Source: an uncultured Gammaproteobacteria bacterium
Lineage (GTDB): Bacteria > Pseudomonadota > Gammaproteobacteria > Steroidobacterales > Steroidobacteraceae
Reading direction: 5' to 3'
Assembly (NCBI GenBank): GCA_963778855.1
Contig: CAVZWC010000004.1
Location: 117,309-181,308, forward strand
Length of the DNA stretch: 64,000 nt
The position numbers and the translations under genes were made by a program. Positions 6,892-58,863 of the stretch are shown piece after piece; positions within the stretch are counted from its first letter, which is position 1; every line of letters begins with the position of its first letter. Under the pieces are notes generated by a model. It worked only from the letters and a program-made list of their open reading frames with translations. It did no database searches and was not told the origin of the DNA.

Positions 6892-7952
6892 GCTTCATGG
6901 CCAAACCCAAGGTCGCCCATCCCGTCGCTGCCGAAGAACGCGCTCGGCCTCACGCGCCGCGACTACGAGGGCGCGCATGTCGACGCTGTGCGCCGGCTGC
7001 GGCCACGACTCGATCACGGCCGCGATCGTCGAGGCCTGCTGGGGCCTGTCGATGCGAGCCGCAGCAGCTGGTCAAGCTCTCCGGCATCGGCTGCTCCTCG
7101 AAGACCACCGCCTACTTCGTCAGCGGCGCGCACGGCTTCAACTCCGTGCACGGCCGCATGCCCTCGATCGCCACCGGCGCCAACGCCGCCAACCGCAAGC
7201 TGCACTACATCGGCGTCTCCGGCGACGGCGACACGCTGTCGATCGGCCTCGGCCAGTTCTGCCACGCGATCCGCCGCAACCTCAACATGCTGTACATCAT
7301 CGAGAACAACGGCGTCTACGGGCTCACCAAGGGCCAGTTCTCGGCCTCGGCCGACATCGGCACCAAGGCCAAGAAGGGCGAGGCCAACCAGCAGCCGCCG
7401 ATCGACCCGGTGCTGCTGGCGCTGACGCTCGGCGCCACCTTCGTCGCGCGCAGCTTCTCGGGCGACAAGGCGCAGCTGGTGCCGCTGATCCAGGCGGGCA
7501 TGCATGCACCAGGGCTTCGCGCTCATCGACGTGCTCTCGCCCTGCGTGACCTTCAACGACCACGAGGGCTCGACCAAGAGCTACGCCTACACGCGCGAGC
7601 ACTACGAGCCGGGTCGTGCACGCCGACTTCGTGCCGCCGGCGCCGCGAGATCAGCGGCAGACTACGCGCGAGGGCGAGAGCGCTGCCGGTGACGATGCAC
7701 GACGGCAGCCGCATCGTGCTGCGCAAGCTCGATCCGGCCTACGACCCCACCGATCGCAGCGCGGCGCTGGCGCACATCCACGAGCGGCTGCAGGCGCAGG
7801 AATACCTGACCGGGCTGCTGCACATTGAGCCCGCGCAGCCCGAGTTCCACGAGCTCAATGTCACGCCCGACGAGCCGCTGAACGCGATGCCCTACGCGCG
7901 GCTCAATCCGGGCGCGGCGGCGCTGGCGAAGACCCTGGCGCGCTTCCGCTGA
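6888..7952 (+). pseudogene. korB: 2-oxoglutarate/2-oxoacid:ferredoxin oxidoreductase subunit beta (KorB), frameshifted
   Basis: MSFMAKPKVAHP.., MSTLCAGCGHDSITAAIVEA, LSGIGCSSKTTAYF..HGRMPSIATGANAAN..GDGDTLSIGLGQFCHAIRRNLNMLYIIENNGVYGLTKGQ (TPP motif), and GFALIDVLSPCVTFND. The C-terminus is intact up to the stop at 7952. Confidence 0.85.
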
Positions 7953-8017
7953 CGTTTGCGCCACGGCGCGCGAATCTCTAGACTCGGCGCCCTTCGTCAG
8001 CAGCTGGAGAAGCTTAA

Positions 8018-8134
8018 GTGGGCAAGGGTGATCGCAAGACGCGTCGCGGCAAGATCTACGCCGGTTCCTTTGGCAAGTCGCGCCCCAAGGATCCGGCCAA
8101 GCGCAAGGCGGCGGCGAAGCGGACGCGAAGGTAG
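8018..8134 (+). CDS. 30S ribosomal protein Thx (bTHX), 38 aa. It is not in the ORF track because it is below the length cutoff.
   Basis: My translation is VGKGDRKTRRGKIYAGSFGKSRPKDPAKRKAAAKRTRR*. It starts at a GTG preceded by GGAGA 8 nt upstream. The GKGDxxTxRGK signature is that of the Thx family. Confidence 0.75.
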   Translation: MGKGDRKTRRGKIYAGSFGKSRPKDPAKRKAAAKRTRR

Positions 8135-8176
8135 CCGCGATCCCGCGCCGGGCGCGACTTCAGGCCGCGCGCCGCT

Positions 8177-10117
8177 TCAGGCCGGGCGCTTGAGCGACAG
8201 CCGGCTCTGGGTGCGGCCGGGGTCGTCCGCCGCCAGGTCCTGGGAGTGGCCGCCGCGCCGGATCAGCGCGGCGAACTCCGCCGCCGGCATCGGCTTGCTG
8301 TAGTGGTAGCCCTGGTACTGGTCGCAGCCCAGCATCTGCAGGAACTCCAGCTGTTCCGGCGTCTCGACGCCCTCGGCGATGACCTTGAGCTTGAGCGTGT
8401 GGCCGAGTGAGACGATCGCGCTGACGATCGAGGCGTCGTCGTTGCTCGAGGTCACGTCGCTGATGAAGGTGCGGTCGATCTTGAGCTTGTCGATCGGGAA
8501 GCGCTGCAGGTAGCTCATGCTCGAGTAGCCGGTGCCGAAGTCGTCCACCGACACCAGCACGCCCATCTCGCTGAGCTTGCGCAGGATGCTGACCGACTCC
8601 TCCGGATCGCTCATGAGCGCGCTCTCGGTGATCTCGACCTCGAGGAAGGCCGGGTCGAGGCGGTATTCCTCCAGCGCCTGGCGGATCGTCGCCAGCAGCG
8701 TGCCGTTGCGGAACTGGAACGCCGACAGGTTGACGGCCACGCGTGTGGGCGTGAGGCCCTCGTCCTGCCAGGCACGGGCCTGGCGGCAGGCCTCGCGTAT
8801 CACCCAGTTGCCGATGGACTCGATCAGGCCGCATTCCTCGGCCAGCGGGATGAAGACCGCCGGCGCGACCGGGCCGCGCTCGGGGTGCAGCCAGCGGATC
8901 AGGGCCTCGGCGCCACGCACCAGGCCGCTCTGGGCGTCGACCTTGGGCTGGTAGTGGAGCACGAACTGGCCGCGCGCGAGCGCGTGGTGCAGGTCGCTCT
9001 CGAGCTTGCCGCGGTCCTGGGTGGCGGCATCCATGCCGGGCGTGAAGAACTGCACGTCGTTGCGGCCCTGCTGCTTGACGCAGTACATCGCCGCGTCGGC
9101 GTGCGCCATGAGCGCCTCGACGCTGCTGCCGTCCTGCGGATAGAGCGCGATGCCGATGCTGGCGGAAGTGTGGATCTCCTGCTCACCGATGCGCAGCGGC
9201 TGGTGCAGGACCGCGAGCGCGCGCTGCGCCACCGCCTGCGCGTCCGTCGGCTGCGCCAGGTTGTCGATGATCATGACGAACTCGTCGCCGCCGAGGCGCA
9301 CTACGGTGTCGATGCTGCGTGCAACGCCCTGCAGGCGGGCGGCGACCTCCTTGAGCAGGGTGTCGCCGGCGCCGTGGCCGAAGGAGTCGTTGACCACCTT
9401 GAAGCGGTCGAGGTCGAAGACCGCGACCGCGAAGCTGTGGCCGTCGCGCGCGGCGTGGGCGATCGCCTGCGACAGCCGGTCCTCGAGCAGGATGCGGTTC
9501 GGCAGGCCGGTGAGCGCGTCGTGGGTGGCGAGGTGGCGCAGCTGGCGGTTGGCGGCCTCGAGCCCGCGGGTGCGATCCTCGACCACGCGCTCCAGGCTCT
9601 CGACGTGGCGCCGCAGCGTCAGCTCGTTCTGCCACTTGCGCGTCAGCGCGCTCGCGCACTGCATGACCTCGATCGGCTCGAAGGGCTTCTTGACGACCAG
9701 CAGCTTGTCGGAGTGGTCGAGGCGCGCGACCACTTCGGTCCAGTCGTAGTCGGAGTGCGCCGAGCAGATCACGACCTGCACGTTCGGGTCGATCGCCCAC
9801 AGGCGCTGGATGGTCTCGAGGCCGTCCCATCCCGGCGGCATGCGCATGTCGACGAAGGCGAGCGCGTAAGGGTGCCCGGCCTCGAGCGCGCGCCGCGCCT
9901 GCTCGACGCCCTGCTGGCCCTGCAGCGCGGTGTCGACCTCGAAGCACTGGCGGGTGCTGGCCGCGACCGGCTCGCCGAGCAAGGCGCGCTCGGCCTCGAG
10001 CAGCGCCGACTCGGCGCCCTGCTCGGGGCCGAGGATCTTGACGAAGTCTTCGTGGATCGACGGGTTGTCGTCGATTACGAGCACGCGGCGGTTGCCGGCG
10101 TGGGAATTAGTGGCCAT
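8177..10117 (-). CDS. Response regulator with REC-GGDEF-EAL architecture (c-di-GMP turnover)
   Basis: Intact 646-aa ORF. It has an N-terminal receiver (VLVIDDNPSIH..AFVDMRMPPGWDG), an intact GGDEF motif (VVRLGGDEFVM) and EAL-domain motifs (GAEALIRW, EVEITES, DDFGTGYSS). Its start overlaps the stop of the upstream kinase by 11 nt. Confidence 0.9.
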   Translation of the reverse strand: MATNSHAGNRRVLVIDDNPSIHEDFVKILGPEQGAESALLEAERALLGEPVAASTRQCFEVDTALQGQQGVEQARRALEAGHPYALAFVDMRMPPGWDGLETIQRLWAIDPNVQVVICSAHSDYDWTEVVARLDHSDKLLVVKKPFEPIEVMQCASALTRKWQNELTLRRHVESLERVVEDRTRGLEAANRQLRHLATHDALTGLPNRILLEDRLSQAIAHAARDGHSFAVAVFDLDRFKVVNDSFGHGAGDTLLKEVAARLQGVARSIDTVVRLGGDEFVMIIDNLAQPTDAQAVAQRALAVLHQPLRIGEQEIHTSASIGIALYPQDGSSVEALMAHADAAMYCVKQQGRNDVQFFTPGMDAATQDRGKLESDLHHALARGQFVLHYQPKVDAQSGLVRGAEALIRWLHPERGPVAPAVFIPLAEECGLIESIGNWVIREACRQARAWQDEGLTPTRVAVNLSAFQFRNGTLLATIRQALEEYRLDPAFLEVEITESALMSDPEESVSILRKLSEMGVLVSVDDFGTGYSSMSYLQRFPIDKLKIDRTFISDVTSSNDDASIVSAIVSLGHTLKLKVIAEGVETPEQLEFLQMLGCDQYQGYHYSKPMPAAEFAALIRRGGHSQDLAADDPGRTQSRLSLKRPA

Positions 10118-11963
10118 GGGATCTCTCGCTCGGTCGGGTTGGCAGTTCCAGTACGAAGGTCGCGCCGTGGCCGGCGCCCTGGCTCTCGACGCGCAGCGCG
10201 CCGCCGAGCTCGCGGGCCGCCAGCGCGCCGCTGTGCAGGCCGAAGCCGTGGCCGTTCTTTTTGGTCGTGAAGCCGTGGTTGAAGATCCGCGTCAGGTTCT
10301 CGGGCGGGATGCCGACGCCGTTGTCACTGACGGCGATGGCGACTCCGTCCTGGCGGCGGCTGACGCGCACGTTGATGCACTTGTCGCTGCGGCTCGTGGC
10401 CTGGCAGGCGTGCTTGGCGTTACGCAGCAGGTTGACGAGGATCTGCAGCACGCGGTGCTTGTCGACCGTGACCGGCGGCACCTCGGCGAAGTCCCGCTGC
10501 AGCCTGATCGACTGGCGCTCGAGCTCGTCGGCGTTCAGGCGCAGGCTCTCCTCGACCAGCTTGTGGACGTCGACGCTCTCGGCGACGCCCACGAGCCTGG
10601 AGTAGCTCTGCTGCATCGCCACGACCTCCTTGATGTGCTCGACGTTGGCGCGCAGGGCGTCGAGCTCCTGCAGCGTCTCGACGCGCTCGCCCGCCAGCTG
10701 CTTCGACAGCTGCTCGAGGTAGGCCGGCAGGTGCCGGCCGCGCTCGTCGGCGGCGATGAACTGGCCGAGGTCGTCGCGGTGCTCCTGCAGCAGCGCGGCC
10801 ACGCGTTCGAGGCCGGCGGCCTTCGACCTGCGGATGCCGTCGGCCAGCAGGCTGGCCGAAACGTTGACGCTGTTGAGTACGTTGCCGACGTTGTGCAGCA
10901 CGCTGGCGGCGACTTCGGCCATGCCGGCGAGGCGCGAGGCGTCGCGCAGCTGCTGTTGCAGCGCCGATTCGCGCTGCTCGGCGCCTACGCGCTCGGTGAC
11001 GTCGAGATCGATGCCGACCAGGCGCGAGCCGCCGTCGGCGGAGTCGACCACCGCGGCGGCGAGCGATTCGATGTGGCGGACCGTGCCGTCGGGCAGCACC
11101 ACCCGGTAGCGCGTGCGCAGCTGCTGGTGCGCGCGCAGTGCGGTCGACATGGCCTGGGCCGCGGCCGCGCGGTCTTCCGGGTGTATCAGCTCCAGCCAGC
11201 TGGCCAGCGTCGGCCTGAAGTCCGGCGCCGTCTGGCCATAGAGCTCGCTCATGGTCTCGCTCCACCAGACCTGCTCGGACTGGGCCTGCAATTCGTAGAC
11301 GCCGGCGTGCGCCGCCTTGGTTGCGGCGCCGAAGCGAATCGACAGCCTCTCGAGCTCGGCACGGCGTGCGCGCTCGATGGCAGCGTCGGCCTCGATCTGC
11401 TGCTTGAGCCGGCGGCGCGTCAGCAGCACGAAGTACACCGTCAGCGCGCCGCTGACGAACAGCGCCGCGACCAGCAACCGCTGCTGCAACTTGGCCGAGT
11501 CGATGACCTCGCGCACCACGGCCTGGTCGCGGTTGACGAAGTTGGCGTCGATGGCCCGCGTCTGCTGGTCGGCCTGCAGGATCGTAGGGCGCAGCGGCAT
11601 CAGCGCGTCGAGGCGCGCGCCGGCGTGGATCGAGCCCGCCAGCGAAGCGACCAGGGCCGGCGTGTTGCCGAGCACCGGGGTCTGGCCGAGCCGCGCCAGC
11701 CGCGCGAGCTGGTCGGCCGAGCCTTGCAGCGCCTCGGCGGACTGGCGGCTGAGGGTGCCGGAGTCGACCGCGTCGGTGACGCCGTTGATGAAGGTGCGGT
11801 AGCTGGCGCGCGCCTCGCTGGCCAGGTTGCGCAGCGGCCGCGATTCGGCGAGCGCGGTCGCGCGCCGCGCGTCGCCCAGCAGCTGGGCGAACAGCACCAG
11901 CGAAACCGGCAGGATCACGGCCAGGAACTGCAGGGCAATCAGGTTGTCGGTCGATCGTCGCAT
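10107..11963 (-). CDS. Membrane sensor histidine kinase (periplasmic domain, TM, PAS, HisKA/HATPase)
   Basis: Intact 618-aa ORF. It has two hydrophobic segments flanking a ~150-aa periplasmic region, a PAS-like segment, an H-box (ASVLHNVGNVLNSV), and N/G boxes (LLRNAKHA, DNGVGI, GHGFGLH). Confidence 0.9.
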   Translation of the reverse strand: MRRSTDNLIALQFLAVILPVSLVLFAQLLGDARRATALAESRPLRNLASEARASYRTFINGVTDAVDSGTLSRQSAEALQGSADQLARLARLGQTPVLGNTPALVASLAGSIHAGARLDALMPLRPTILQADQQTRAIDANFVNRDQAVVREVIDSAKLQQRLLVAALFVSGALTVYFVLLTRRRLKQQIEADAAIERARRAELERLSIRFGAATKAAHAGVYELQAQSEQVWWSETMSELYGQTAPDFRPTLASWLELIHPEDRAAAAQAMSTALRAHQQLRTRYRVVLPDGTVRHIESLAAAVVDSADGGSRLVGIDLDVTERVGAEQRESALQQQLRDASRLAGMAEVAASVLHNVGNVLNSVNVSASLLADGIRRSKAAGLERVAALLQEHRDDLGQFIAADERGRHLPAYLEQLSKQLAGERVETLQELDALRANVEHIKEVVAMQQSYSRLVGVAESVDVHKLVEESLRLNADELERQSIRLQRDFAEVPPVTVDKHRVLQILVNLLRNAKHACQATSRSDKCINVRVSRRQDGVAIAVSDNGVGIPPENLTRIFNHGFTTKKNGHGFGLHSGALAARELGGALRVESQGAGHGATFVLELPTRPSERSHGH

Positions 11964-45769: not shown

Positions 45770-46318
45770 GTGGCGCGCTCCAAGACCCTGGCGCCACGTG
45801 TCGACATCGCTCGCGCCATCCTTATTCTGCGTAGTTACAAGGTCCTGCTGGATGAGAATCTGGCCACCCTCTATGGCGTCGAGACCAAGGTTCTCGTGCA
45901 AGCCGTCAGGCGCAACGCGGCCAGGTTTCCGGAGGATTTCATGTTCCAGCTCACCGCCCCGGAATGGAGCGCTTTAAGGTCACAATCTGTGACCTTAAAG
46001 CACAGGCGCGGCCAGCACCGCAAATACCTGCCATACGCGTTCACCGAGCAGGGCGTGGCCATGCTGTCGTCGGTGCTCCGTAGCCCTCGGGCCATTTCCG
46101 TCAACATCGAGATCATGCGTGCCTTCGTCCGCATGCGCGAGATGCTCGCCTCCGACCACGAGCTTGCGGAGCGCATTGATCAGCTCGAAGCCCGCATCGG
46201 CAAGAAACTCGCTACCCACGACAAGGCGATCACCGCCATCCTATCGGCCATTCGGGAGTTGATGCAGCCCCTGGCCACGAAGCGCCGGGGCATCGGATTT
46301 ACTGCCGAAATCGGCTAA
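45770..46318 (+). CDS. ORF6N domain protein (KilA-N-related DNA-binding)
   Basis: The 182-aa ORF has the family signature ILRSYKVLLDENLATLYGVETKVLVQAVRRNAARFPEDFMFQLT..LRSQ.VT..YLPYAFTEQGVAMLSSVLRS..AI.VNIEIMRAFV. It sits in a visibly lower-GC stretch. Confidence 0.85.
   Translation: MARSKTLAPRVDIARAILILRSYKVLLDENLATLYGVETKVLVQAVRRNAARFPEDFMFQLTAPEWSALRSQSVTLKHRRGQHRKYLPYAFTEQGVAMLSSVLRSPRAISVNIEIMRAFVRMREMLASDHELAERIDQLEARIGKKLATHDKAITAILSAIRELMQPLATKRRGIGFTAEIG
45971..46001. repeat. Perfect 31-bp palindrome (14-bp arms GCTTTAAGGTCACA / TGTGACCTTAAAGC, 3-nt spacer) inside the ORF6N CDS
   Basis: Read directly. It overlies codons ALRSQSVTLK. Confidence 0.9.
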
Positions 46319-48604: not shown

Positions 48605-49201
48605 ATGGGCAAATCGCGCCTCGAGGCCTTCAGCGATGGCGTGCTCGCGATCATCATCACGATCATGGTGCTCGAGCTGCGCGCGCCGCACGCCACCACG
48701 CTGGCGGCCCTGTGGCCACTGTGGCCGAAGATCCTGAGCTACGGCATGAGCTTCATGTACCTCGGCATCTACTGGAACAACCACCACCACCTCTGGCAGG
48801 CGGTCGAACGCGTCAACGGCAGCGTGCTCTGGGCCAACCTGCACCTGCTGTTCTGGCTTTCGCTCGTGCCCTTCGCCACCGCGTGGATGGGCGAGAACGA
48901 GTTCGCCGCTGCGCCGGTGGCGCTGTACGGCGTCGTGCTGCTGGCCGCGGCCTGCGCCTACTACGTCATGACGCGCGTGCTGCTGGCGAGCCACGCGCCC
49001 GACTCGCTGCTGGCGCGCGCGCTCGGCCGCGACTTCAAGGGGCGGGTCTCGATCCTGATCTACCTCGTGGCCATTGCCGGCTCGTTCCGGCTGCCGTGGC
49101 TGTCGGGCCTGCTCTACGTGCTGGTCGCGGTGATCTGGCTCGTGCCCGACCGCCGCTTCGAGCGGCTGCTCGCCATGGGGAGCCCCGCGGCGCGTCGCTA
49201 G
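48605..49201 (+). CDS. TMEM175/DUF1211 family potassium channel-like membrane protein
   Basis: MGKSRLEAFSDGVLAIIITIMVLEL carries the family RxxxFSD signature in TM1, and there are ~6 hydrophobic segments. Confidence 0.8.
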   Translation: MGKSRLEAFSDGVLAIIITIMVLELRAPHATTLAALWPLWPKILSYGMSFMYLGIYWNNHHHLWQAVERVNGSVLWANLHLLFWLSLVPFATAWMGENEFAAAPVALYGVVLLAAACAYYVMTRVLLASHAPDSLLARALGRDFKGRVSILIYLVAIAGSFRLPWLSGLLYVLVAVIWLVPDRRFERLLAMGSPAARR

Positions 49202-52200
49202 CGCTCGATCGTGTAGACGAGGTCGGCGCTGCGCGCATAGCCGGCCTCGGTCTTGAGCGTCCACCTGTTGCCGAGCGTGTAGCGCATCTTGAAGGTGTTG
49301 ATGGCCTCGGCGAGGCTCACGCCATAGCTGACGTAAAGGCGCGGCGACAGGTAGCGGCCAAGCACGAGCGAAGTTTCGTTGTTGAGGTCGGACTCGACGC
49401 TGACGTCGCTGATGCCGACCTTGCTGCCGAACTGCTGGAACAGCATCGCACTGCCCTGCATCAGGGCGAGGTCCTTGCCCTGCTGCGAATCGCTGGTGTT
49501 CTGGACGCTCTCGAGCGACCCGCCGGCGAGCAACAGCGAGACGATCTGCGACTGCGACACCGGTGGGTCCGAGAAGAAGGTCAGGCGGGGCTGGCGCAGC
49601 GTGCCGCGCACGTTGACGCCGGCCCTGATGTCCGGGAACTGCTTGACCGCGCGCAGGTCGATCGCCGGGTCGTTGAGCGGACCATCGCGGAACTGCAGGC
49701 GGCCGAGCTCGATGTCGAGCTTGCGGCCGTAGGCCGTGTACTTGCCTTCCTCGACCTTGAGCTCGCCGGTGCCGCGGTTGAAGCCGGAGTCGTCGGCCAC
49801 GACGCGCAGGCTCCCGCTCAGCCGCCCGACCAGGCCGAAGGTGTCGATCGTCACGCGCTCGCCGAGCCGCAGCGTCAGGTCGCTGAAGACGTGGAAGCCC
49901 TCCTTCGCCGGCGCCTGGTTGGCGGAGACGATGACCTCGTCGCTCGAAGTGCGCGCGGCGTTGGCCAGCTGGTCGGGGCGCAGCAAGCGCCCGTAGGGCA
50001 GCGTGACGGTGCCGGTGATGTCGATGCGGTGCCCGTCGAGCTTCATCGTCACGTCGGGTGAAGCCTGCACGCGCGCTTCCGGCAGGTTGATGATCCGCAG
50101 GTTGTCCCCGGTCAGGTGCAACTGGCCGTAGGGCAGGGAATCGCGCCAGGTGAGCTGGCCGCTCAGCCGCCCGCGACCGTCGGCGCCGGCGCGGGCGCTG
50201 CCGTCGAGCTGCAGCACCGGGCCGTTGAGTCGCGCGGCGAAATTGAGCTCGCGCAGGGCGAGGTTCACCTGGTAGGCGTCGACCTCGGCGTTGCTGAGGC
50301 GCAGCTCGCCGTTGAACTCCGGCGCGGCCAGCGTTCCGGCCACGGTCAGGTTGGCGTTGAGCTGGCCGGCGACGCGGTCGACCATGGCGACGTAGGACTC
50401 GATGAAGCCGAGCGAGTGCGTCTCGAGCTTGAGCTCGCCCTGCAGCGGCCAGCTGCCGGAGATGGTCCCGGGCCCGTGTGCCTGCATCCGCCCGACGATG
50501 TTGCCGGCGGCGCCGGCCTCGAGGCCCACGCTGCCGACGAGTCCCGCAGAGTCGAGCTTCAGCTGCACATCGCCGTTGCCGAGATTGAAGATTTCAACGC
50601 GTCCGCTCGTGAGGCGATGGCGCACGCTGGCCTCGGCGAGCGCGCCGATGAACGATGCCGTCCACGGCGCACCGGCCGGAGCCTGCGCGCGCAGGTCCAG
50701 CGACACCTGCCCGTCAAAGGTGGTGTCCGTGGTGAGGCCGGCAGTCAGCGCCCGCAACGGCACGCGCGCCGCGTTGAGCTCGAGCTCGCTACGGCCGAGC
50801 TCGTGCTCGCCGGCGGCGCAAAAAGCCGCGACCGCATCGCGCAGGCACAGGCGCTCGAGCCGCAGCAGCTGGCCATCGAGGGCCACCATCGCCGCGGCTG
50901 GTGAGGCCAGCTTCAGGTTCATCTCGGCGCCATCGCTGGCGGTGAATTCGCCAAACTGCGCGTGCCAGGCGCCTTGCGCGAAGCTGGCCGTGCCGCCGGC
51001 GTGCAGCGCCACCGGCGCGGCGTCGAGGTCGAGCGCGAAGCGGTGCGCGGCGGCGGTGCCGGTGGTGCTGAAGCGCAGGTGATCGAAGCCGTGATCGGCC
51101 AGGCGCAGCCCGGCGAGGTTCAAGTTGGTCGTGGCGTGCCCGCTGCCACCGGGGTCGAAGTCGATGCTGGCCTCGAGCGCGTGCAGGCTCGATGCGCCGT
51201 AGGCCAGCTCGCTGCCGCTCACGTGGGCGCGCACCACGGGATTGAGCTCATCGCCGCCGAGCTGGCCCCCGGCGCGGACGCGGCCGCTCGCGCCGACCTG
51301 CAGCAGCGCAAGGTCCGGGGTGTCGAGCGCGAAGTGCAGGTCCGGGTGCGCGCCGAGCCGCCCGTCGGCCTCGATGCGCGTCTCGCCGAGCTGCAGGCGC
51401 ACGTCCTGGAGCAGCCAATCCTCGCCCGACAGCGCGATGCCGGCGTGCCCGCTGGCGTGCCGGCCACGCACGGCGCCACTGATCTCGCTGACGCGCACCT
51501 GCAACGGGTGCCTCGGTCCCTCGTTGTGGCCTTCGGCGGCGACGTTGAAGTTGAGGTGGCCGTCGATCCCGGGCCGCAAGTGGGCGACGTCGAGGCCGCG
51601 CATTGCGCCGCCTGCCGACCAGGCCACTTGCGGTGACCAGCGCACCTCGCCATGCAGCTGCGCGTGGCCGCCGTAGGCCTCGACGGTCGCGGCCGGGATC
51701 TCCACGCCGTCGTGCGCCAGCCGTCCTGCCGCCTGGAATTGCAGCGAGTGCCCGGCGTAGGGCAGCAGGTCGCCCTCGGCCGTGAGCGCGTAGGGCTTCA
51801 GGCCCGCAAGCGTGTAGCTGCCCGCGTTGCTGCGGACCAGCGGCGCGGCCTCGGCCAGTGGCCAGCGGAACAATTGCCAGCGACCCGAAAGCTCGAGCCG
51901 CGGCCCGCCCTCGACGATGCCGACGGTGCCGGCGGTGCTGAGCTGCACGCCGTAGGCACGCTGGCGCAGCTGCAGGTTCGCGATGCTGAGCACGTGCGCG
52001 GCGTAATTGCCGGCGAAATCCACCGCCAGCGGCCCGGACTTGAGCCCGGCAGGGGTCAGCTCGCCGCTGGCCGAGAAGCCGTGATGATTGCCGCTGAGCC
52101 GCAACTCGCCACTGACCTTGCCGAGCGCGTCGCCGACGCCCCAGGGGCGCAGTTCAAAGCTATGCACCTGCGACAGGCCCTGCCAATGCCAGTCGCCGGC

Positions 52201-52938
52201 CAGCGCGCTGGCCGCGCCGTGAAAATCGGCCCTGAACGGTTCGAGCAGTACCGCGTTGATCCCGAGCCGGTCCAGGTCGCCATTGATCTGGCCGTCGACC
52301 AGCCAGGCGGGCTGCGCGGCCGCTTCGCTGGTGACCCGCAGTTGCGCGTGCATGCGCAGCGCGGCGGTTGCGTGCAGCACCCCGGTGGCGTGCACCACGA
52401 AGCCCGAGTAGTGCAGCGTGCCGTCGAAGACGCGGATCTCCCTGGCGCCGAGCTGGGCGGCGATGCTGAGCCGGTCGGCCTCGACGCTCGTGCCGCTGGG
52501 CGCGACGATCGCGGCGTGGCCGACCTCGACCCTCGCAAGCTCGATGCCGAGGAGCCCGGCGAGGAAGTGAGGTTGCCACGGCTCGCCGGCCGGGCCGGTA
52601 TGCGGCAGCACCTCGACCCGAACGTTGCCGAGCTCGAGCCGCGAAACGCGGATCGTCTGCCAGAGCAGCGGCAGCAGCGTGACGCGGCCGTCGATGCCGG
52701 TCACGATCACGCGCACGCGCTCGTGGTCGACCTCGACGCGATCGGCGTGCAGGCCGCCGTGCAACGTGCCGCGCGCGCCGCTGATCGCCAGCGTGACCGG
52801 GCCGAGGCGCCGGCTGGCCAGCGACGCCAGTCGCTGCAGCCCGCTCTCGGTCCAGCCGGCGTAGTAGATGCCGAGCGTGGCCAGCAGCGCCAGCGCCACC
52901 ACCAGGATCCACGAGGTATGCAGCAGGCGGCGGATCAT
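49198..52938 (-). CDS. tamB: Translocation and assembly module subunit TamB
   Basis: Intact 1246-aa ORF with an N-terminal signal-anchor, a long beta-rich body, and a DUF490-type C-terminus (..LGRYLSPRLYVSYGVSL..TLKTEAGYARSADLVYTIER). It overlaps the tamA stop by 4 nt. Confidence 0.92.
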   Translation of the reverse strand: MIRRLLHTSWILVVALALLATLGIYYAGWTESGLQRLASLASRRLGPVTLAISGARGTLHGGLHADRVEVDHERVRVIVTGIDGRVTLLPLLWQTIRVSRLELGNVRVEVLPHTGPAGEPWQPHFLAGLLGIELARVEVGHAAIVAPSGTSVEADRLSIAAQLGAREIRVFDGTLHYSGFVVHATGVLHATAALRMHAQLRVTSEAAAQPAWLVDGQINGDLDRLGINAVLLEPFRADFHGAASALAGDWHWQGLSQVHSFELRPWGVGDALGKVSGELRLSGNHHGFSASGELTPAGLKSGPLAVDFAGNYAAHVLSIANLQLRQRAYGVQLSTAGTVGIVEGGPRLELSGRWQLFRWPLAEAAPLVRSNAGSYTLAGLKPYALTAEGDLLPYAGHSLQFQAAGRLAHDGVEIPAATVEAYGGHAQLHGEVRWSPQVAWSAGGAMRGLDVAHLRPGIDGHLNFNVAAEGHNEGPRHPLQVRVSEISGAVRGRHASGHAGIALSGEDWLLQDVRLQLGETRIEADGRLGAHPDLHFALDTPDLALLQVGASGRVRAGGQLGGDELNPVVRAHVSGSELAYGASSLHALEASIDFDPGGSGHATTNLNLAGLRLADHGFDHLRFSTTGTAAAHRFALDLDAAPVALHAGGTASFAQGAWHAQFGEFTASDGAEMNLKLASPAAAMVALDGQLLRLERLCLRDAVAAFCAAGEHELGRSELELNAARVPLRALTAGLTTDTTFDGQVSLDLRAQAPAGAPWTASFIGALAEASVRHRLTSGRVEIFNLGNGDVQLKLDSAGLVGSVGLEAGAAGNIVGRMQAHGPGTISGSWPLQGELKLETHSLGFIESYVAMVDRVAGQLNANLTVAGTLAAPEFNGELRLSNAEVDAYQVNLALRELNFAARLNGPVLQLDGSARAGADGRGRLSGQLTWRDSLPYGQLHLTGDNLRIINLPEARVQASPDVTMKLDGHRIDITGTVTLPYGRLLRPDQLANAARTSSDEVIVSANQAPAKEGFHVFSDLTLRLGERVTIDTFGLVGRLSGSLRVVADDSGFNRGTGELKVEEGKYTAYGRKLDIELGRLQFRDGPLNDPAIDLRAVKQFPDIRAGVNVRGTLRQPRLTFFSDPPVSQSQIVSLLLAGGSLESVQNTSDSQQGKDLALMQGSAMLFQQFGSKVGISDVSVESDLNNETSLVLGRYLSPRLYVSYGVSLAEAINTFKMRYTLGNRWTLKTEAGYARSADLVYTIER

Positions 52939-54767
52939 AGTTGCGGGGAGATGTTGATGTGCAGGCGCGGGCCAGGAAGCGTCGCGAACCCCGGGGCGCG
53001 CACTGCCTTGGCGATGTCGAAGCCGACCGTGACCACCGGCAGGCGCCAGCGCAGTCCAACGCCGACCGACGCGGCCAGCGGCTCACCCAGGTTGTTGATG
53101 GCGTTACCGAAGTCGGTGAAGGCCGCGATGCCCATCAGCCGCGGCAGGTTCCGCACCACCTCGACCGTGCCCGTTATCAGGTGCCGGCCACCGACCCGGA
53201 CCTGCGAGCCGTCGGGCGCGGTCTGCACCGGCGAGAGCGAGTTGTAGGAGAATCCGCGCACGCTCCGGTCGCCGCCGGCATAGAAGCGGAAGGTGCCCGG
53301 CAGGTCCTGGAAATCGCCGACCGCGCTGGCGCCGACCTCGCCGCGCAGGAACAGGTGCCAGTGCTCGGTCATGTTGAGCACGCGCTCGGAGCGCATGTCC
53401 AGGCGCAGGAAGTTCGAGTTCGAGCCCAGCACGTGGTTCGAGCCGATCAGCTCGGCATACAACGTGTGCGAAAAAAGTTCCTCGCCCAGGTAGCCCTGGG
53501 GCACTGAGGCATAGGTGATGCCCGGCACGATCAGGTCGTCGACCACGTGGCCGTTGACCGCGTCGTCGGTGATGGTATGCATGAAGGCCATCGACAGCAC
53601 ACGCTGCCAGCGGCCGAGGTTCTGCGTGACGCTCGGCGTCACCGAATCCTCGTGCGTGTCGACCGCGCTGCTGGTCTTTTCCGACTGCGTCAGGAACTGC
53701 ACCGAAAACTTCTCGAGCACCGGATCGCCGAATGGAATGTCGTAGCGCGCGTTGAGGTTCTGGCCGATCTCGGAAACCTGCAGCCACACGCGCAGCCGGT
53801 GGCCCTGGTCGTTGACCAGCGGATTGAGCCAGCTGATGGTGCCGCGCACGCCGGTGTCGGTGCCGTAGCCGGCGCCAAAGGAATAGGTGTTGCGCGCGCG
53901 CTTGCCGCTGATGTTGATCGGCACCACGTGTTTGACCGGGTCGCGCTCGCCGGTGGCGACCTCGACGCCGGCGAAGAAGCGGCTGTCGTCGAGCGCGAAC
54001 TGCGTGCGCAGCAGCTTGCCCGCGTCGAACGGGTCGCCTTCCTGGTAGCGCAGGTAGCGGCGCAGCTGCGACTCGCGGATCGAGGCCTGCTCGAGGGTGG
54101 TGGGGCCGAACTTGTAGCGCTCGCCGGTCTCGAGCTCGAAGAAGGCGCGCGCCTGGCGCTGCTGCGGGTCGACCTGCAGCTCGTTGCGCAGCAGCCGCGC
54201 GTCCAGGTAGCCGAAGGTGACCGCCGCCGATTGCAGGTCCGACTTGGTCCTGTCATAGGCGGCGTGCTCGAGGCGCTTGCCCTTGATGAGCGCCGGCGCG
54301 GCGATGATGCGCGTGAACACCGAATCGGTGGCGCCGGGGCCGTGGACCAGGATGCTGACCTCCTCGACCAGCACCGGCTCGCCCGGGCGGATGTCGATCT
54401 GCACGCGCCAGTTGCGGTGGTTGGCCTCCTCGGTCAGCGTCGACTGCACGATCGGGCTGTAATAGCCGTAGGGCTTGAGTGCGTCGCGCACCTCGCTGTC
54501 GACGCGACGGTAGAGCCGCTGCACCGCGTCTGGCTCGATGCGGTCGCGATCCTTGTAGCGCTCGAGGCTCAGCAGCGCGAGCACGTTGCGCCTGAGCGTG
54601 GCGTCGACGCCGTTGACCTCGACGCGGATCGCGGCCGCGGCCGGCAGCGCCAGCGCCGCCAGGCCCGCCAGCGCCAGCCACGGCAGGCTGGTGCGTACCC
54701 CGGCGCGGCGGTGTTGCGGGCCCATGACTGTGGGAGCGGCGCGCCCGCCCGGGGTTCCGTGCCTCAC
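52935..54767 (-). CDS. tamA: Translocation and assembly module outer-membrane subunit TamA (Omp85 family)
   Basis: Intact 610-aa ORF with a signal peptide, POTRA-like repeats and an Omp85 barrel (..FYAGGDRSVRGFSY..). An internal ATG at 54725 is an alternative start. Confidence 0.9.
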   Translation of the reverse strand: MRHGTPGGRAAPTVMGPQHRRAGVRTSLPWLALAGLAALALPAAAAIRVEVNGVDATLRRNVLALLSLERYKDRDRIEPDAVQRLYRRVDSEVRDALKPYGYYSPIVQSTLTEEANHRNWRVQIDIRPGEPVLVEEVSILVHGPGATDSVFTRIIAAPALIKGKRLEHAAYDRTKSDLQSAAVTFGYLDARLLRNELQVDPQQRQARAFFELETGERYKFGPTTLEQASIRESQLRRYLRYQEGDPFDAGKLLRTQFALDDSRFFAGVEVATGERDPVKHVVPINISGKRARNTYSFGAGYGTDTGVRGTISWLNPLVNDQGHRLRVWLQVSEIGQNLNARYDIPFGDPVLEKFSVQFLTQSEKTSSAVDTHEDSVTPSVTQNLGRWQRVLSMAFMHTITDDAVNGHVVDDLIVPGITYASVPQGYLGEELFSHTLYAELIGSNHVLGSNSNFLRLDMRSERVLNMTEHWHLFLRGEVGASAVGDFQDLPGTFRFYAGGDRSVRGFSYNSLSPVQTAPDGSQVRVGGRHLITGTVEVVRNLPRLMGIAAFTDFGNAINNLGEPLAASVGVGLRWRLPVVTVGFDIAKAVRAPGFATLPGPRLHINISPQL

Positions 54768-55690
54768 TGCGGGGCGACGAGCGCGGTGCCCGTAACGCGC
54801 AGGTACCAGGCGTCGACCAGGCGACGCGCGATCGAGTACGGCGGCGGCAGCACGCGCGGCGCGCCGGCCGCGAGCTCCGCGGCGCTGAACCAGCGCGCGT
54901 CCTCGAGCTCGCCGTCGAGGTGCAGCGGCCCCGCGCTGCTGGCCGTGGCGTTGAAGCCGAGCATCAGCGAGGAGGGGAACGGCCAGGGTTGCGAGGCGTA
55001 GTAACTGACCGAGCTCGTGCGCACGCCGGTTTCCTCGAGCACCTCGCGCGCGACCGCGTCCTCGAGGCTCTCGCCGGGCTCGACGAAGCCGGCCAGGGCC
55101 GAATACCGGCCCGGCGGCCAGGTCGGCTGGCGCCCCAGCAGCGCACGCTCGCCGTCGCTGACCAGCACGATCACGGCCGGGTCGAGGCGCGGGAAGAATT
55201 CACTGCCGCATTCGCTGCTCGTGCAGCGCAGGCAGTGGCCGGCGTGGCGCGGCGCCGTCGGCGCGCCGCAGACCCCGCAGTGCTGGTGGCGGGCACGCCA
55301 GACCAGCAGCGCGCGGGCGCAGGCCAGTACCGCGGCCTCGGCCGCCGGCAGCTCGGTCAGCAGCGGGCGCAGCTCCTCGAGTTGCGTGCCCTCAGGCAGG
55401 GCGGGTGGTGCGGTCAGCGCGTCGAGCAGCACACAGCGCGCGCCCTGGTACCAGCCGAGCAGCACCAACTGGCCGGCGTCGGCGTCGCGCACCAGCGGAT
55501 GGCCGGCGTCGAGGAAGGCGATCCCGGCGCCCGGCCCGTGCCGCACCAGGTGCAGGGTGCCGATCGACAGCAGGTAGCGAGTGCCCGGCTCGGCCGCCGC
55601 GCGTGCCGCCCAATCGGCCTCGCTGCGCGATTCCGAGCGGCGGTCGAGCCAGGCGCCTGTAAAGGGATTCTGGCCGGCATCCGCCGTCAT
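54764..55690 (-). CDS. nudC: NAD+ diphosphatase (NADH pyrophosphatase) NudC
   Basis: Intact 308-aa ORF with a zinc ribbon (CGVCGAPT..CLRCTSSEC) and the Nudix box GFVEPGESLEDAVAREVLEETGV. It overlaps the tamA start by 4 nt. Confidence 0.9.
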   Translation of the reverse strand: MTADAGQNPFTGAWLDRRSESRSEADWAARAAAEPGTRYLLSIGTLHLVRHGPGAGIAFLDAGHPLVRDADAGQLVLLGWYQGARCVLLDALTAPPALPEGTQLEELRPLLTELPAAEAAVLACARALLVWRARHQHCGVCGAPTAPRHAGHCLRCTSSECGSEFFPRLDPAVIVLVSDGERALLGRQPTWPPGRYSALAGFVEPGESLEDAVAREVLEETGVRTSSVSYYASQPWPFPSSLMLGFNATASSAGPLHLDGELEDARWFSAAELAAGAPRVLPPPYSIARRLVDAWYLRVTGTALVAPQ

Positions 55691-55741: not shown

Positions 55742-56383
55742 CTAGGGCCTGCTCAAGCCGGGGCCCCGCCGGCCTCCGCGGCGGCCGACGGCGCAGGCCG
55801 CCTCGCGCTCGAGGCCCACCGGCGTGCACAGGGCGCAACGCGCGGGGCGCAGAGCCAGAGAATCGACGACCAGCAGGGCCCCGCAGCCCTGGCATTCGCC
55901 CAGGCGCAGCTCGCCGCCGCGGGCCAGCGCGTTGACCAGCAGCACGGCATGCTCGAAGCCGATGCTCGGAGTTCCGAGCAGCGCACGATAGGCCTCGTAG
56001 GCCTGGCACAAGGTACCGGCGCGGCCGACGCCGTGTCCCGGTGGTGACGACGGCATGGGCCACGCGTCGCCGATTGCGGTCACGTGGCCAGGGCCGGGCT
56101 CGAGCAGGCCAGCCAGGCAGCACAGGGCGGCCAGCGCCCCAGCCTCCTGCCGCAGGCGGGTGGTGCGCATGAAGAACGTGGCCTGCTGCGGCGACTTGCC
56201 GCGATGGCGTGTCAGGCCGCGGCCGCCCCCCTGCAGGTAGGAGCGGTAGAGCTTGCGGATGCGATCGTCGCTGAGCCCGGTCCAGAGGCGGATCGTGCGC
56301 GTGCGCGCCTCGTGGCGGATGAATTGCATGGCCACGTCGAGCCGCAGGCGGTCGCGGCTGTAGCGGTCGTCGGAGATGCGCAT
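55742..56383 (-). CDS. FlhC-family-like transcriptional regulator (non-flagellar context)
   Basis: The ATG at 56383 gives 213 aa. DVAMQFIRHEARTRTIRLWTGLSDDRIRKLYRSY parallels FlhC [33 protein letters not shown]. A C-terminal four-Cys knuckle (CQGC-x15-CALC) has FlhC-like spacing. The rest of the 474-aa ORF in the track is an artefactual upstream extension. Confidence 0.6.
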   Translation of the reverse strand: MRISDDRYSRDRLRLDVAMQFIRHEARTRTIRLWTGLSDDRIRKLYRSYLQGGGRGLTRHRGKSPQQATFFMRTTRLRQEAGALAALCCLAGLLEPGPGHVTAIGDAWPMPSSPPGHGVGRAGTLCQAYEAYRALLGTPSIGFEHAVLLVNALARGGELRLGECQGCGALLVVDSLALRPARCALCTPVGLEREAACAVGRRGGRRGPGLSRP

Positions 56384-56423
56384 CGTGGGCCTCGCTCGCC
56401 GGTTCTCCGGCTTGTTGGTAGAA

Positions 56424-56441
56424 TTGGGATAAATATCCCAA
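56424..56441. promoter_or_regulatory. Perfect palindrome TTGGGATA-AA-TATCCCAA in the divergent promoter region
   Basis: Read directly. It has 8-bp arms and a 2-bp spacer, lies in the AT-richer 120-bp spacer between the FlhC-like gene and the divergent 193-aa gene, and is roughly central. Confidence 0.5.
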
Positions 56442-56503
56442 ATTACGCGCTGGCGTGCCAGAGCCTGCGGCGGTGAATATCGCACCGGAATTGCGAGGAA
56501 CAC

Positions 56504-57085
56504 ATGACCCAGGCCAGTAATCCGACCGTCGAGGCGCCGTCCAACCCGCTGGCAGAGCTCAACGCCGGGATCCTCGAGGTCCTGGCCGGGGGCAGCGCGG
56601 GCCTGCAATGGCAGTGGCGCGCGCTCGGCGAGGTGGCGCGCGCGCGCCTCGCGCAATGCCCCTACCTGCTGGCTGACGCCGGCTTCGCCGATCCGCGGCG
56701 GTGGGCCACGCTGCCGCGCGCGGGCGTCCACGAGGCGCAGCCGCCCGAGGCCGGCGAGGCGCAGCGCTGCGTGCTGCCGACGCCGCTGCTGCGACGAGTG
56801 CTGCTGTACGCCTGGCACCTGGCGCGCGTCAGCCCGCTGGCTGCGCGCATGACCCTGGGCATGGGCGAGCGCTGCCTCGGCGTCGTCGCCGCCTGCCGCT
56901 TCGCCGACCTCGAGGCGCTGGCGGAGCGGCGCCCGCCCTGGATCCGCGCGCGCTGGGCCGAGCGGCCGGAACTGTGGCGCGCGTGGCTGGCCGCGGGCGC
57001 GCTGGAATCGCCGCTCGAGCTTGAGCTCATGCAGTTGTGGGGCCTGCAGATGATCGCCGCCGACCTCGCGCGCCGGGGCCGCTGA
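56504..57085 (+). CDS. Hypothetical protein with a possible FlhD-like helical segment
   Basis: 193-aa ORF with GAGGAA upstream of the ATG. The segment AWHLARVSPLAARMTLGMGERCLGVVAACRFADLEALAERRPPWIRARW can be threaded on FlhD [49 protein letters not shown]. This is weak and from memory only. Confidence 0.4.
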   Translation: MTQASNPTVEAPSNPLAELNAGILEVLAGGSAGLQWQWRALGEVARARLAQCPYLLADAGFADPRRWATLPRAGVHEAQPPEAGEAQRCVLPTPLLRRVLLYAWHLARVSPLAARMTLGMGERCLGVVAACRFADLEALAERRPPWIRARWAERPELWRAWLAAGALESPLELELMQLWGLQMIAADLARRGR

Positions 57086-57134: not shown

Positions 57135-58058
57135 ATGCAGGCATTGTCGATCCGTGGCCTCACCAAGACCTATCGCAATGGCGTCCAGGCGCTGCGCAGC
57201 GTCGACCTCGACGTCGAGCAGGGCGATTTCTTCGCGCTGCTGGGCCCGAACGGCGCCGGCAAGACCACGCTGATCGGCATCATCACCTCGCTGGTCAACA
57301 AGACCTCCGGTACCGCCAGCGTCTTCGGCTATGACCTCGACACGCAGCTCGAGCGGGCGAAGTCCTGCATCGGCGTGGTGCCGCAGGAGCTCAACTTCAA
57401 CCAGTTCGAGAGCCCGCTGACGATCGTCATCAACCAGGCCGGCTTCTACGGCATCCCGCGCCCGGTGGCGCGCGTGCGCGCCGAGAAGTACCTGCGCCAG
57501 CTGCAGCTCTGGGACAAGCGCAACGGCATGGCGCGCGGCCTGTCGGGTGGAATGAAGCGGCGTCTCATGATCGCGCGCGCGCTCATGCACGAGCCGCGGC
57601 TGCTGGTGCTCGACGAGCCGACCGCGGGCGTCGACATCGAGATCCGCCGCTCGATGTGGGAGTTCCTCAACGACATCAACGCCCGCGGCACGACCATCAT
57701 CCTGACGACGCACTACCTCGAGGAGGCCGAGAACCTCTGCCGCAACATCGCCATCATCGACAACGGCCGCATCGTCGAGCGCGACCGCATGAGCAACCTG
57801 CTGCGCGGGCTCCATACCCAGACCTTCGTGCTCAACCTGCGCCACCCGGTGGCGGTGGCGCCGCAGGTCGCCGGCTTCGAGGTCATCCGTGTCGACGACC
57901 ACACGCTCGAGGCCGAGGTCTCAAAGGAGCAGAGCCTCAACGGCCTGTTCGCGCAGCTCGCGGCGCAGGGATTCGACGTGCTGTCGATGCGCAACAAGGT
58001 CAACCGGCTCGAGGAAGTGTTCATGCGCCTGGTGGAGCATCGGGGGAACGGTGGCTGA
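57135..58058 (+). CDS. ABC transporter ATP-binding protein (YadG-like, ABC-2 exporter type)
   Basis: Intact 307-aa ORF with Walker A GPNGAGKTT, signature LSGGMKRRL and Walker B LLVLDEPTAGVD. Confidence 0.9.
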   Translation: MQALSIRGLTKTYRNGVQALRSVDLDVEQGDFFALLGPNGAGKTTLIGIITSLVNKTSGTASVFGYDLDTQLERAKSCIGVVPQELNFNQFESPLTIVINQAGFYGIPRPVARVRAEKYLRQLQLWDKRNGMARGLSGGMKRRLMIARALMHEPRLLVLDEPTAGVDIEIRRSMWEFLNDINARGTTIILTTHYLEEAENLCRNIAIIDNGRIVERDRMSNLLRGLHTQTFVLNLRHPVAVAPQVAGFEVIRVDDHTLEAEVSKEQSLNGLFAQLAAQGFDVLSMRNKVNRLEEVFMRLVEHRGNGG

Positions 58059-58863
58059 GGGCGCACCGGCCGCTGGTGGCGCGCTGCCGTCGCTGAACGC
58101 GGCCCGCTGGACGGGCTTCATGACCATCGTCATCCGCGAGTACAGCCGCATCATCCGCATCTGGGGCCAGACGCTGGTGCCCTCGGCCGTCACGGCGATC
58201 CTTTACTTTGTGATCTTCGGCAGCCTGATCGGCCGGCGCGTCGGCCGCATGGACGGCTTCGAGTACATGCAGTACATCGCCCCGGGTCTGATCATGATGT
58301 CGGTCATCACCAATTCCTACGCCAACACCGTGTCCTCGTTCTTCGGCGCCAAGTTCGGCAAGCACGTCGAGGAACTGCTGGTCTCGCCGCTCCCCAACTG
58401 GATCATCGTCGCCGGTTACGCCACCGGCGGGCTGCTGCGCGGCCTCATGGTCGGCGGCGTGGTCACGCTGGTGTCGCTGGTGTTCGCGCACCTGCCGGTG
58501 CACCACCTGGCGCTGATCGTCGCCGCGGTGCTGCTGACGGCGATGGTGTTCTCGCTCGGCGGCTTCATCAACGCCGTGTTCGCCAAGAACTTCGACCAGG
58601 TCAACTGGATCCCGGCCTTCGTGCTGACGCCGCTGACCTACTTCGGCGGCGTGTTCTACTCGGTGTCAATGCTGCCGCCGTGGGCGCGCACGCTCTCGCA
58701 CGTCAACCCGATCCTGCACATGGTCAACGCCTTCCGCTATGGCTTCCTGGGCGTCAGCGACGTCCACGTCGTCGGCGCCTTTGCCATCATGGTCGGGCTC
58801 GTGGCGGCGTTGTTCCTGGTCGCGCTGTGGCTCATGGATCGGGGGGCCGGAATCAGAGACTGA
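58051..58863 (+). CDS. ABC-2 type transporter permease (YadH-like)
   Basis: The GTG at 58051 overlaps the ATPase stop. It shows near-colinear similarity to E. coli YadH as recalled (IRIWGQTLVP..YFVIFGSLIG..FEYMQYIAPGLIMMSVITNSYANTVSSFFGAKF..VLTPLTYFGGVFYS..NPILHMVNAFRYGFLG). Confidence 0.85.
   Translation: MAEGAPAAGGALPSLNAARWTGFMTIVIREYSRIIRIWGQTLVPSAVTAILYFVIFGSLIGRRVGRMDGFEYMQYIAPGLIMMSVITNSYANTVSSFFGAKFGKHVEELLVSPLPNWIIVAGYATGGLLRGLMVGGVVTLVSLVFAHLPVHHLALIVAAVLLTAMVFSLGGFINAVFAKNFDQVNWIPAFVLTPLTYFGGVFYSVSMLPPWARTLSHVNPILHMVNAFRYGFLGVSDVHVVGAFAIMVGLVAALFLVALWLMDRGAGIRD

Follow-up and report, generated by a model that had tools for sequence, protein, structure and literature searches.

Two divergent genes related to flhC and flhD, here termed gene C and gene D, lie side by side in a 64,000-nucleotide stretch of DNA from an uncultured Gammaproteobacteria bacterium of the Steroidobacteraceae (GenBank assembly GCA_963778855.1, contig CAVZWC010000004.1, positions 117,309 to 181,308). 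This whole stretch is referred to below as the window, and positions are counted from its first letter. On balance, and with a likelihood placed a little above even, the pair is best explained as an FlhD/FlhC-type heteromeric transcription factor, a core chromosomal pair of Steroidobacterales-type soil Gammaproteobacteria. The products of C and D would form a putative complex of the FlhD/FlhC type. The two genes and their parts are located as follows.

55742-56383, minus strand: gene C, the FlhC-like subunit, 213 amino acids on translation from the start MRISDDRY
55826-55894, minus strand: Cys4 knuckle of gene C, with C164, C167, C183 and C186 (CxxC-x15-CxxC), which lines up with the zinc site of FlhC
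56504-57085, plus strand: gene D, 193 amino acids, with two domains
56504-56779, plus strand: N-terminal domain of gene D, residues 1-92, conserved, helical and without detectable relatives
56780-57085, plus strand: C-terminal half of gene D, residues ~93-193, FlhD-like by profile and Foldseek comparison

Gene C, a divergent FlhC homologue

A mechanical list of open reading frames (ORFs) gives gene C as 474 amino acids, owing to an upstream TTG start. The homologues of gene C all begin at MRISDDRY, and gene calls made independently in relatives give the same C and D. The starts of both genes agree with those of their homologues and have plausible ribosome-binding sites, GAGG before gene C and GAGGAA before gene D.

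Gene C is a full-length, very divergent homologue of FlhC, as profile comparison, the Pfam matches of its relatives and the predicted fold all agree. When the Protein Data Bank (PDB) is searched with a profile of the C family, only FlhC chains are matched (E=7e-4), and the alignment is collinear over the N-terminal helices and the Cys4 region. Among the 38 homologues of the C-family alignment (A2), 33 match the Pfam FlhC family (PF05280) at E<=0.01, the best of them at 3e-6. The match of gene C itself to the NCBIfam FlhC model NF009365 is sub-threshold (E=8e-4, 19.3 bits against a cutoff of 216). The AlphaFold2 model of gene C (predicted local distance difference test, pLDDT, 81) retrieves with Foldseek the FlhC chains 8j56_C (E=5.8e-6), 8j56_F and 2avu_E, with E-values ranging to 2.5e-5, a probability of 1.0 and a target-normalised template modelling (TM) score of 0.75 over ~185 columns; the next match stands at E=1. 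Identity to FlhC is 21-22%.

Conservation within the family is strong. The A2 alignment contains 56 invariant columns, among them the four cysteines C164, C167, C183 and C186, which align with the cysteines of FlhC from E. coli and Cupriavidus necator. The spacing between the two cysteine pairs is x15 in gene C and x16 in E. coli FlhC, and the site would be expected to bind a metal. Conservation is extreme in the first 50 residues of gene C; residues 101-114 are modelled as a loop of low confidence, and the tail past residue ~187 is variable. In cluster records the members of the family are all called 'hypothetical protein', without taxonomy or function; the name 'FlhC' has been given by JGI to a few members, and the family is otherwise without a name in the databases checked.

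Gene D, a two-domain FlhD-like protein

Gene D is a two-domain protein and not a plain FlhD. A search of the PDB with a profile of 43 homologues (alignment A1) returned FlhD chains only (E=1.5e-5, 4e-4 and 5e-4), the best of which aligns profile positions 106-180 with FlhD residues 23-96 of 8j56_A. The Pfam FlhD family (PF05247) is precomputed on many of the 71 listed relatives of gene D, and in a direct scan at E<=0.01 it was found in one of the 43 members of A1. In the AlphaFold2 model of gene D (pLDDT 85, predicted TM score 0.81), FlhD chains are the top real matches found by Foldseek, with probabilities of 0.8-0.99, target-normalised TM scores of 0.59-0.71 and root-mean-square deviations of 1.0-3.2 Å; the accompanying E-values are weak (0.8-4), the domain being short, and the FlhD fold applies to residues ~93-192 only.

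The N-terminal domain has invariant residues N20, W38, L41, A50, P53, L55 and L56 and is modelled with high confidence, and no structural match to it came out of the Foldseek search. The possibility that this half is a second FlhD domain, arisen by internal duplication, was rejected by profile-profile alignment (hhalign probability 1.6%).

Much of this had been proposed in an earlier note on the window, written from its letters alone. Both ORFs are confirmed at the positions, strands and lengths that the note gave (213 amino acids on the minus strand, 193 on the plus strand). Its description of gene C as FlhC-like is upheld by the Foldseek result, the FlhC-only PDB profile matches and the Pfam matches of 33 of the 38 relatives, and its likening of the CQGC-x15-CALC knuckle to the FlhC zinc site by the invariance of the four cysteines in the 38 homologues. 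The proposal that a stretch of ~50 amino acids in gene D could be threaded onto the FlhD core is likewise borne out by the A1 profile and Foldseek.

Distribution and co-inheritance

Homologues of gene C number more than 4,700 in a word-indexed search, and an exhaustive search at E<=1e-10 divides the family into 696 clusters at 50% identity. In species-representative genomes at least 593 matching stretches were found, and the locus counts that follow rest on the best 80 of them (L001-L080). These are metagenome-assembled genomes labelled as Steroidobacteraceae, Steroidobacterales or unclassified Gamma- or Proteobacteria. The sequence upstream of C is long enough for judgement in 76 loci; in 75 of them the immediate upstream neighbour is a divergently oriented homologue of gene D, L030 being the single locus without one. 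The divergent arrangement seen by the earlier note is thus real and conserved, and the co-conservation that it had proposed to check is strict in related genomes. Adjacency and strict co-inheritance are as expected for a heteromeric regulator.

Other departures from the simple pair were noticed. On contig CAWIOP010000001.1 (~592-601 kb; L026 and L027), two entire D-C modules with identical spacers stand in inverted orientation on either side of nudC-tamA-tamB, through either a genuine inverted duplication or an error of assembly. In L071 the main C gene is followed, 1.3 kb downstream, by another C-like ORF (7849-8274), a partial one that covers profile positions 40-180 (E=1e-51).

Genomic context

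The genes on either side of the pair in the window are the following.

49198-52938, minus strand: tamB, whose start overlaps the tamA stop by 4 bp; Pfam TamB, E=2e-62
52935-54767, minus strand: tamA, whose start overlaps the nudC stop by 4 bp; Pfam Omp85 and POTRA_TamA_1
54764-55690, minus strand: nudC-like NADH pyrophosphatase, 51 bp downstream of C; Pfam NUDIX, NUDIX-like and Zn_ribbon_NUD
57135-58058, plus strand: ABC ATPase, 49 bp downstream of D; Pfam ABC_tran
58093-58863, plus strand: ABC-2 permease; Pfam ABC2_membrane

Downstream of C and on the same strand, nudC is present in 71 of the 80 loci, tamA in 68 and tamB in 61, and the gap between C and nudC is below 100 bp in 58 of the 71. 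No terminator was found in the 51-bp gap of the window. Given the short gaps, this lack of a terminator and the 4-bp overlaps, C, nudC, tamA and tamB probably form one transcript, which would couple gene C to the operon of the translocation and assembly module (TAM), a machine for outer-membrane assembly. On the side of gene D, the ABC ATPase is found in 52 of the 80 loci and the ABC-2 permease in 49. This linkage is looser, with other envelope genes (CsgG-like or TonB_C-like) usually in between; the inserts vary by clade and encode a CsgG-like lipoprotein or a TonB-C-like protein (L001:4187-5131, L203:3709-4656 and L029:4271-4954). No such insert separates D from the exporter in the window. 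The conserved context of the pair is the cell envelope and not flagella.

The window as a whole is 70% GC. Its remainder consists of housekeeping genes, with polA, murJ and corA identified by Pfam, and hslUV, xerC and dapF by eye from ORF translations only. The gap at 29.5-35 kb had been considered as a place for rRNA; it gives only one tRNA in Rfam and contains polA. A PAS histidine kinase gene followed by an overlapping response-regulator-GGDEF-EAL gene (8177-11963, minus strand), a pair likewise identified by Pfam, adjoins hslVU.

No flagellar or chemotaxis genes were found among the 20 window ORFs scanned with Pfam, a set that does not cover every ORF. No conjugation or integrase genes were noticed near the loci, where neighbouring ORFs were not systematically annotated, and a tblastn search of 72,556 plasmids with gene C gave no match. 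In view of the conserved synteny, the housekeeping neighbours and the absence of a plasmid match, the pair is a vertically inherited, non-mobile chromosomal module. The earlier note had described a chromosomal pair flanked by nudC-tamAB and an ABC exporter and lacking flagellar or chemotaxis genes nearby; the Pfam annotation, synteny and plasmid search support the first part, and the 20 ORFs scanned agree with the second as far as they reach.

The divergent control region

The region between the two start codons contains a palindrome (dyad) and a putative promoter of gene C.

56384-56503, no strand: divergent control region between C and D, 120 bp, with conserved blocks in 70+ aligned orthologous spacers
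56424-56441, no strand: perfect palindrome TTGGGATA-AA-TATCCCAA; the family core is TTTGGGA-N6-TCCCAA(A), with arms of up to 11 bp in other clades
56432-56437, minus strand: putative -10 of the C promoter within the palindrome (GATATT, after a TGG), placed from the alignment
56455-56460, minus strand: putative -35 position of the C promoter, a weak TGGCAC here and TTGGAA or TTGAAA in relatives

The perfect palindrome that the earlier note reported in the 120-bp spacer is present once in the window, against 0 copies expected in shuffles. Perfect palindromes with 8-bp arms and spacers of 0-6 number 61 in the window, only two of which are AT-rich; perfection alone therefore proves little, and the case for function rests on conservation. 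The other AT-rich example (45976-45996) is AAGGTCACA-ATC-TGTGACCTT, with 9-bp arms, between ORFs resembling a HAD hydrolase and a BNR-repeat protein.

The pattern TTGG-N10-CCAA is kept at the same place in 55 of 81 sequences, or about two thirds of loci. Most loci carry, in the orientation of C, the sequence AATTTGGGA(T/A)ATTTnnCCCAA(A/T)T ~55-70 bp upstream of the C start, and in one large clade the sequence is AATTTGGGAAA-TT-TTTCCCAAATT, with symmetry at 22 of 24 positions. In some clades the arms are changed on both sides (TTGGTC...GACCAA or TTGGTA...TACCAA), and in ~15 loci the dyad is lost. In one group (L028, L034, L036, L037, L039, L042, L049, L058 and L071) it is replaced by TCTGTCATATTCGTACCGAATCTGTGAC, with the -35, the 17-bp spacing and the -10 kept (TTGGAG...CATATT); TCTGTCATATTCGTACCGAATCTGTGAC may serve as another operator. 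The C/D spacers of L043, L054, L061, L066 and L079 contain the dyad twice in tandem, ~35 bp apart. In L076 (2172-5962), a 3.7-kb element has been inserted at the exact centre of the dyad and parts D from C by 4 kb; it encodes an IS1595-type transposase and two passenger ORFs, with an 8-bp target duplication AAATTTTT and terminal inverted repeats of ~25 nt. A position weight matrix scan of 921 kb of related sequence and the window found no site of >=18 bits outside the C/D spacer, save the split halves in L076, and no second copy of the operator occurs within 6 kb in any locus.

A promoter-like arrangement, TTGnnn-17-(G/C)A(T/A)ATT, lies upstream of C in 50 of the 80 spacers, with exactly 17 bp in 49 of them. 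The same arrangement, with a TTG(G/A)A(A/G) -35, also occurs in the palindrome-less clade. From these alignments, gene C would have a sigma-70 promoter with its -10 inside the dyad and a leader of ~42 nt. As the promoter-like element persists in the palindrome-less clade, the dyad appears separable from the promoter, and its location over the -10 and the start region would be a position of the repressor type. A sigma-54 reading of the TGGCAC in the spacer was discarded by eye, there being no TTGC at N5.

The same dyad at DUF6502 genes

A scan of metagenome contigs for TTTGGGA-W6-TCCCAAA gave at least 120 loci. Among the matches listed, 18 are C/D spacers and ~29 lie at the starts of genes of the DUF6502 family (PF20112, E=6e-100), with the dyad 1-3 nt before the ATG. 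The contigs that carry these DUF6502 genes belong to many unrelated bacteria and range from 44 to 70% GC (for example L116:1322-1345, L129:2430-2452 and L149:408-432, within L081-L200). In these loci the dyad has a TATAAT-like hexamer at its centre, preceded at a distance of 17 nt by a consensus TTGACA. With the -10 at the dyad centre and the ATG 1-3 nt after the dyad, the DUF6502 mRNA would be leaderless. This organisation suggests that DUF6502 genes are autoregulated, in the simplest case by DUF6502 proteins that would act as autorepressors.

The C/D and DUF6502 dyads have even the flanking A and T in common, as ATTTGGGA-W6-TCCCAAAT, and in both cases the dyad overlies a putative sigma-70 -10 that reads into the next gene. 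They differ in geometry: the dyad is centred on the -10 at DUF6502 genes, whereas the putative -10 of C stands 3 bp off the centre and would be followed by the leader of ~42 nt. DUF6502 proteins are ~275 amino acids long and unrelated to C and D by profile comparison. A homology to C or D was considered and rejected (hhalign probability <=0.3%), and a likeness seen by eye in a 'TGLS' helix-turn-helix stretch is generic. The DUF6502 profile has no match in the PDB, no literature or published function was found for the family, and no DUF6502 gene occurs in the window or the 80 loci.

Other matches to the dyad precede genes for lipoproteins (DUF4382 in L208), AAA ATPases and small proteins, one family of each; among the matches listed there were no envelope or flagellar genes attributable to genomes with C and D. 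In a contig of 68% GC without C, D or DUF6502 (L189:219-347), two dyads stand 109 bp apart, each after a repeated flank GGTTGTGAACTATTTCCG. Within the C/D family, the N-terminal 50 residues of gene C are invariant across all operator classes, the dyad-less loci included.

Proposed mechanism and alternatives

In the mechanism proposed here, gene C would be the first gene of a C-nudC-tamA-tamB transcript with a sigma-70 promoter (TTGGAA or TTGAAA, 17 bp, GATATT or GAAATT). A two-fold symmetric protein on the dyad would block RNA polymerase and so repress C and the TAM operon, because the -10 lies inside the dyad. In the other direction, the centre of the dyad would lie ~55-58 bp upstream of the likely start of a weaker D promoter. 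The chance that the binder is a dedicated repressor is placed somewhat short of even, with the C/D complex next and some likelihood left for something else. Such a repressor, most simply of the DUF6502 type, is slightly more likely to be the binder than the C/D complex, because the identical dyad lies at the DUF6502 -10, DUF6502 has no relation to C or D, and the N-terminus of C does not co-vary with the dyad. One conserved repressor family is thus favoured as the protein that would recognise the dyad both at C and at DUF6502 genes. This layout would resemble those in which SetR controls setCD and Acr1 and Acr2 control acaCD.

Alternatively, the C/D complex may itself bind the palindrome and autoregulate both divergent promoters, repressing C and possibly activating D from ~-57, an account that is less likely than not, yet to be taken seriously. 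In about two thirds of loci the dyad lies between the two subunit genes, immediately before one that would encode a DNA-binding protein, and it is absent elsewhere within 6 kb; its tandem copies in some loci fit cooperative binding. The FlhD4C2-type complex is two-fold symmetric (PDB 2avu), and the core motif of AcaCD, GCCCAAAATGGGC, likewise has CCCA/TGGG half-sites (PMC5058578). However, the same 20-bp dyad with the same flanks stands at DUF6502 promoters on contigs of 44-70% GC, and two unrelated readers of one site are unlikely. In addition, the N-terminal 50 residues of C stay invariant where the dyad is changed or lost, and the characterised sites of the FlhDC family sit at the -35 and activate. 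The earlier note's term 'operator-like' agrees with the conservation of the dyad in relatives; a role as the pair's own operator is a candidate reading only, a separate repressor being at least as likely given the shared DUF6502 promoters and the lack of co-variation with the C N-terminus. The note's suggestion that the pair is non-flagellar and could control an undescribed regulon may hold, although no second operator copy lies within 6 kb in any locus.

Several observations weigh against the account preferred here, a non-flagellar FlhD/FlhC-type regulator with a separate repressor on the dyad. Autoregulators classically have their operator immediately in front of the gene for the DNA-binding protein, a layout that favours C/D as the binder, and the DUF6502 and D-like named proteins that were traced lie in different assemblies. 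A consensus promoter scan found no promoter in the window, where the -35 is poor. Furthermore, gene C matches PF05280 only below threshold (E=0.0022, 18.2 bits against a cutoff of 27), and gene D itself has no Pfam match. Several Steroidobacteraceae isolates also have a polar flagellum (PMC7966939).

The last of these observations also favours a reading of the pair as a flagellar master regulator, a divergently rearranged flhDC for which the lack of nearby flagellar genes would be incidental. This is unlikely, even with folds that are those of FlhC and FlhD. In its favour, the flhDC genes are often unlinked from their class II targets, as in E. coli. Against it, polar-flagellated Gammaproteobacteria generally use FleQ/FlrA. 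Across the clade, nudC-tamAB also follows C closely on one strand, in most cases within 100 bp; the layout is divergent and not that of the flhDC operon, identity to FlhC is only 21-22%, and D has an extra conserved domain. Steroidobacter species include non-motile ones (PMC7966939).

A reading of the pair as a paralogue that is decaying or without function, or as the remnant of an integrated conjugative element of the SetCD, AcaCD or BisDC type, is largely refuted and very improbable: the characterised non-flagellar FlhDC-like regulators are all on mobile elements and similarity to FlhC and FlhD is very low, but the pair belongs to a large family under strong purifying selection (56 invariant C columns, including the Cys4 site) and has a fixed synteny with core envelope genes and no plasmid match, no transfer or integrase genes were noticed in loci whose neighbours were not systematically annotated, and the sole mobile element seen, that of L076, is an insertion sequence within the spacer and not a carrier of the pair.

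Implications

Characterised FlhDC-type regulators control flagella or the transfer genes of mobile elements, and a chromosomal third branch would widen the use of this architecture. If the preferred account is true, this branch, fixed across an order of soil bacteria that is abundant yet little studied, is physically tied to tamAB and nudC, and it would offer a first handle on the regulation of TAM outside enterobacteria. DUF6502, with thousands of members, would gain a testable role as a repressor that controls its own gene through a defined 20-bp operator and is translated from a leaderless mRNA. In combination, and quite tentatively, this would be the first cellular, non-flagellar branch of FlhDC, order-wide and with a two-domain FlhD subunit, co-transcribed with TAM and NudC and gated by DUF6502 as a hitherto unrecognised repressor family, whose operator, embedded in the promoter of a leaderless gene, would be common to many Proteobacteria.

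Comparison with known FlhDC-type systems

The closest reference is the FlhD4C2 complex of E. coli and Salmonella, also known from C. necator (PDB 2avu and 8j56). Gene C has the full FlhC fold with its Cys4 site, the C-terminal half of gene D has the FlhD fold, and the two genes are adjacent and strictly co-inherited. In contrast to the flhDC operon, in which flhD lies just upstream of flhC, C and D are divergent. Gene D, with 193 amino acids against ~116 in the single-domain FlhD, has a further conserved domain at its N-terminus. Neither window protein reaches the Pfam thresholds, identity to FlhC is 21-22%, and the neighbours are nudC-tamAB and an ABC-2 exporter and not flagellar genes.

The DNA sites also differ. 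The E. coli FlhDC sites are degenerate (PMC4183435) and the AcaCD site is unusually long, with the core motif GCCCAAAATGGGC (PMC5058578). The boxes of SetCD, AcaCD and FlhDC-SGI1 lie at or just upstream of the -35 and serve class II activation (PMC4344509, PMC5058578). Unlike these long or degenerate motifs at the -35, the C/D spacer has a crisp dyad of 20-24 bp at the -10; it has the CCCA/TGGG half-sites in common with the AcaCD motif.

Among the distant, non-flagellar members of the family, SetCD of the SXT/R391 integrative and conjugative elements (ICEs), AcaCD of IncA/C plasmids and FlhDC-SGI1 are heteromeric activators encoded in same-strand operons on mobile elements, whereas C and D are chromosomal, with core synteny and no plasmid homologue. 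Adjacent transfer genes, as in that mobile-element class, were not noticed in the loci, whose neighbouring ORFs were not systematically annotated; synteny with nudC-tamAB is conserved in 61-71 of the 80 loci. BisDC of ICEclc is an activator that joins an FlhC-like subunit to a D subunit that is larger and non-canonical, as in the present pair; here, however, C matches FlhC directly, D contains an FlhD domain and no ICE context is seen. With respect to motility, the cultured Steroidobacteraceae comprise species that are not motile as well as others that have a polar flagellum (PMC7966939). Overall, the C/D pair departs from FlhDC, SetCD and AcaCD in its Pfam scores, operon layout, FlhD size and lack of a flagellar or mobile context, and resembles all three in architecture.

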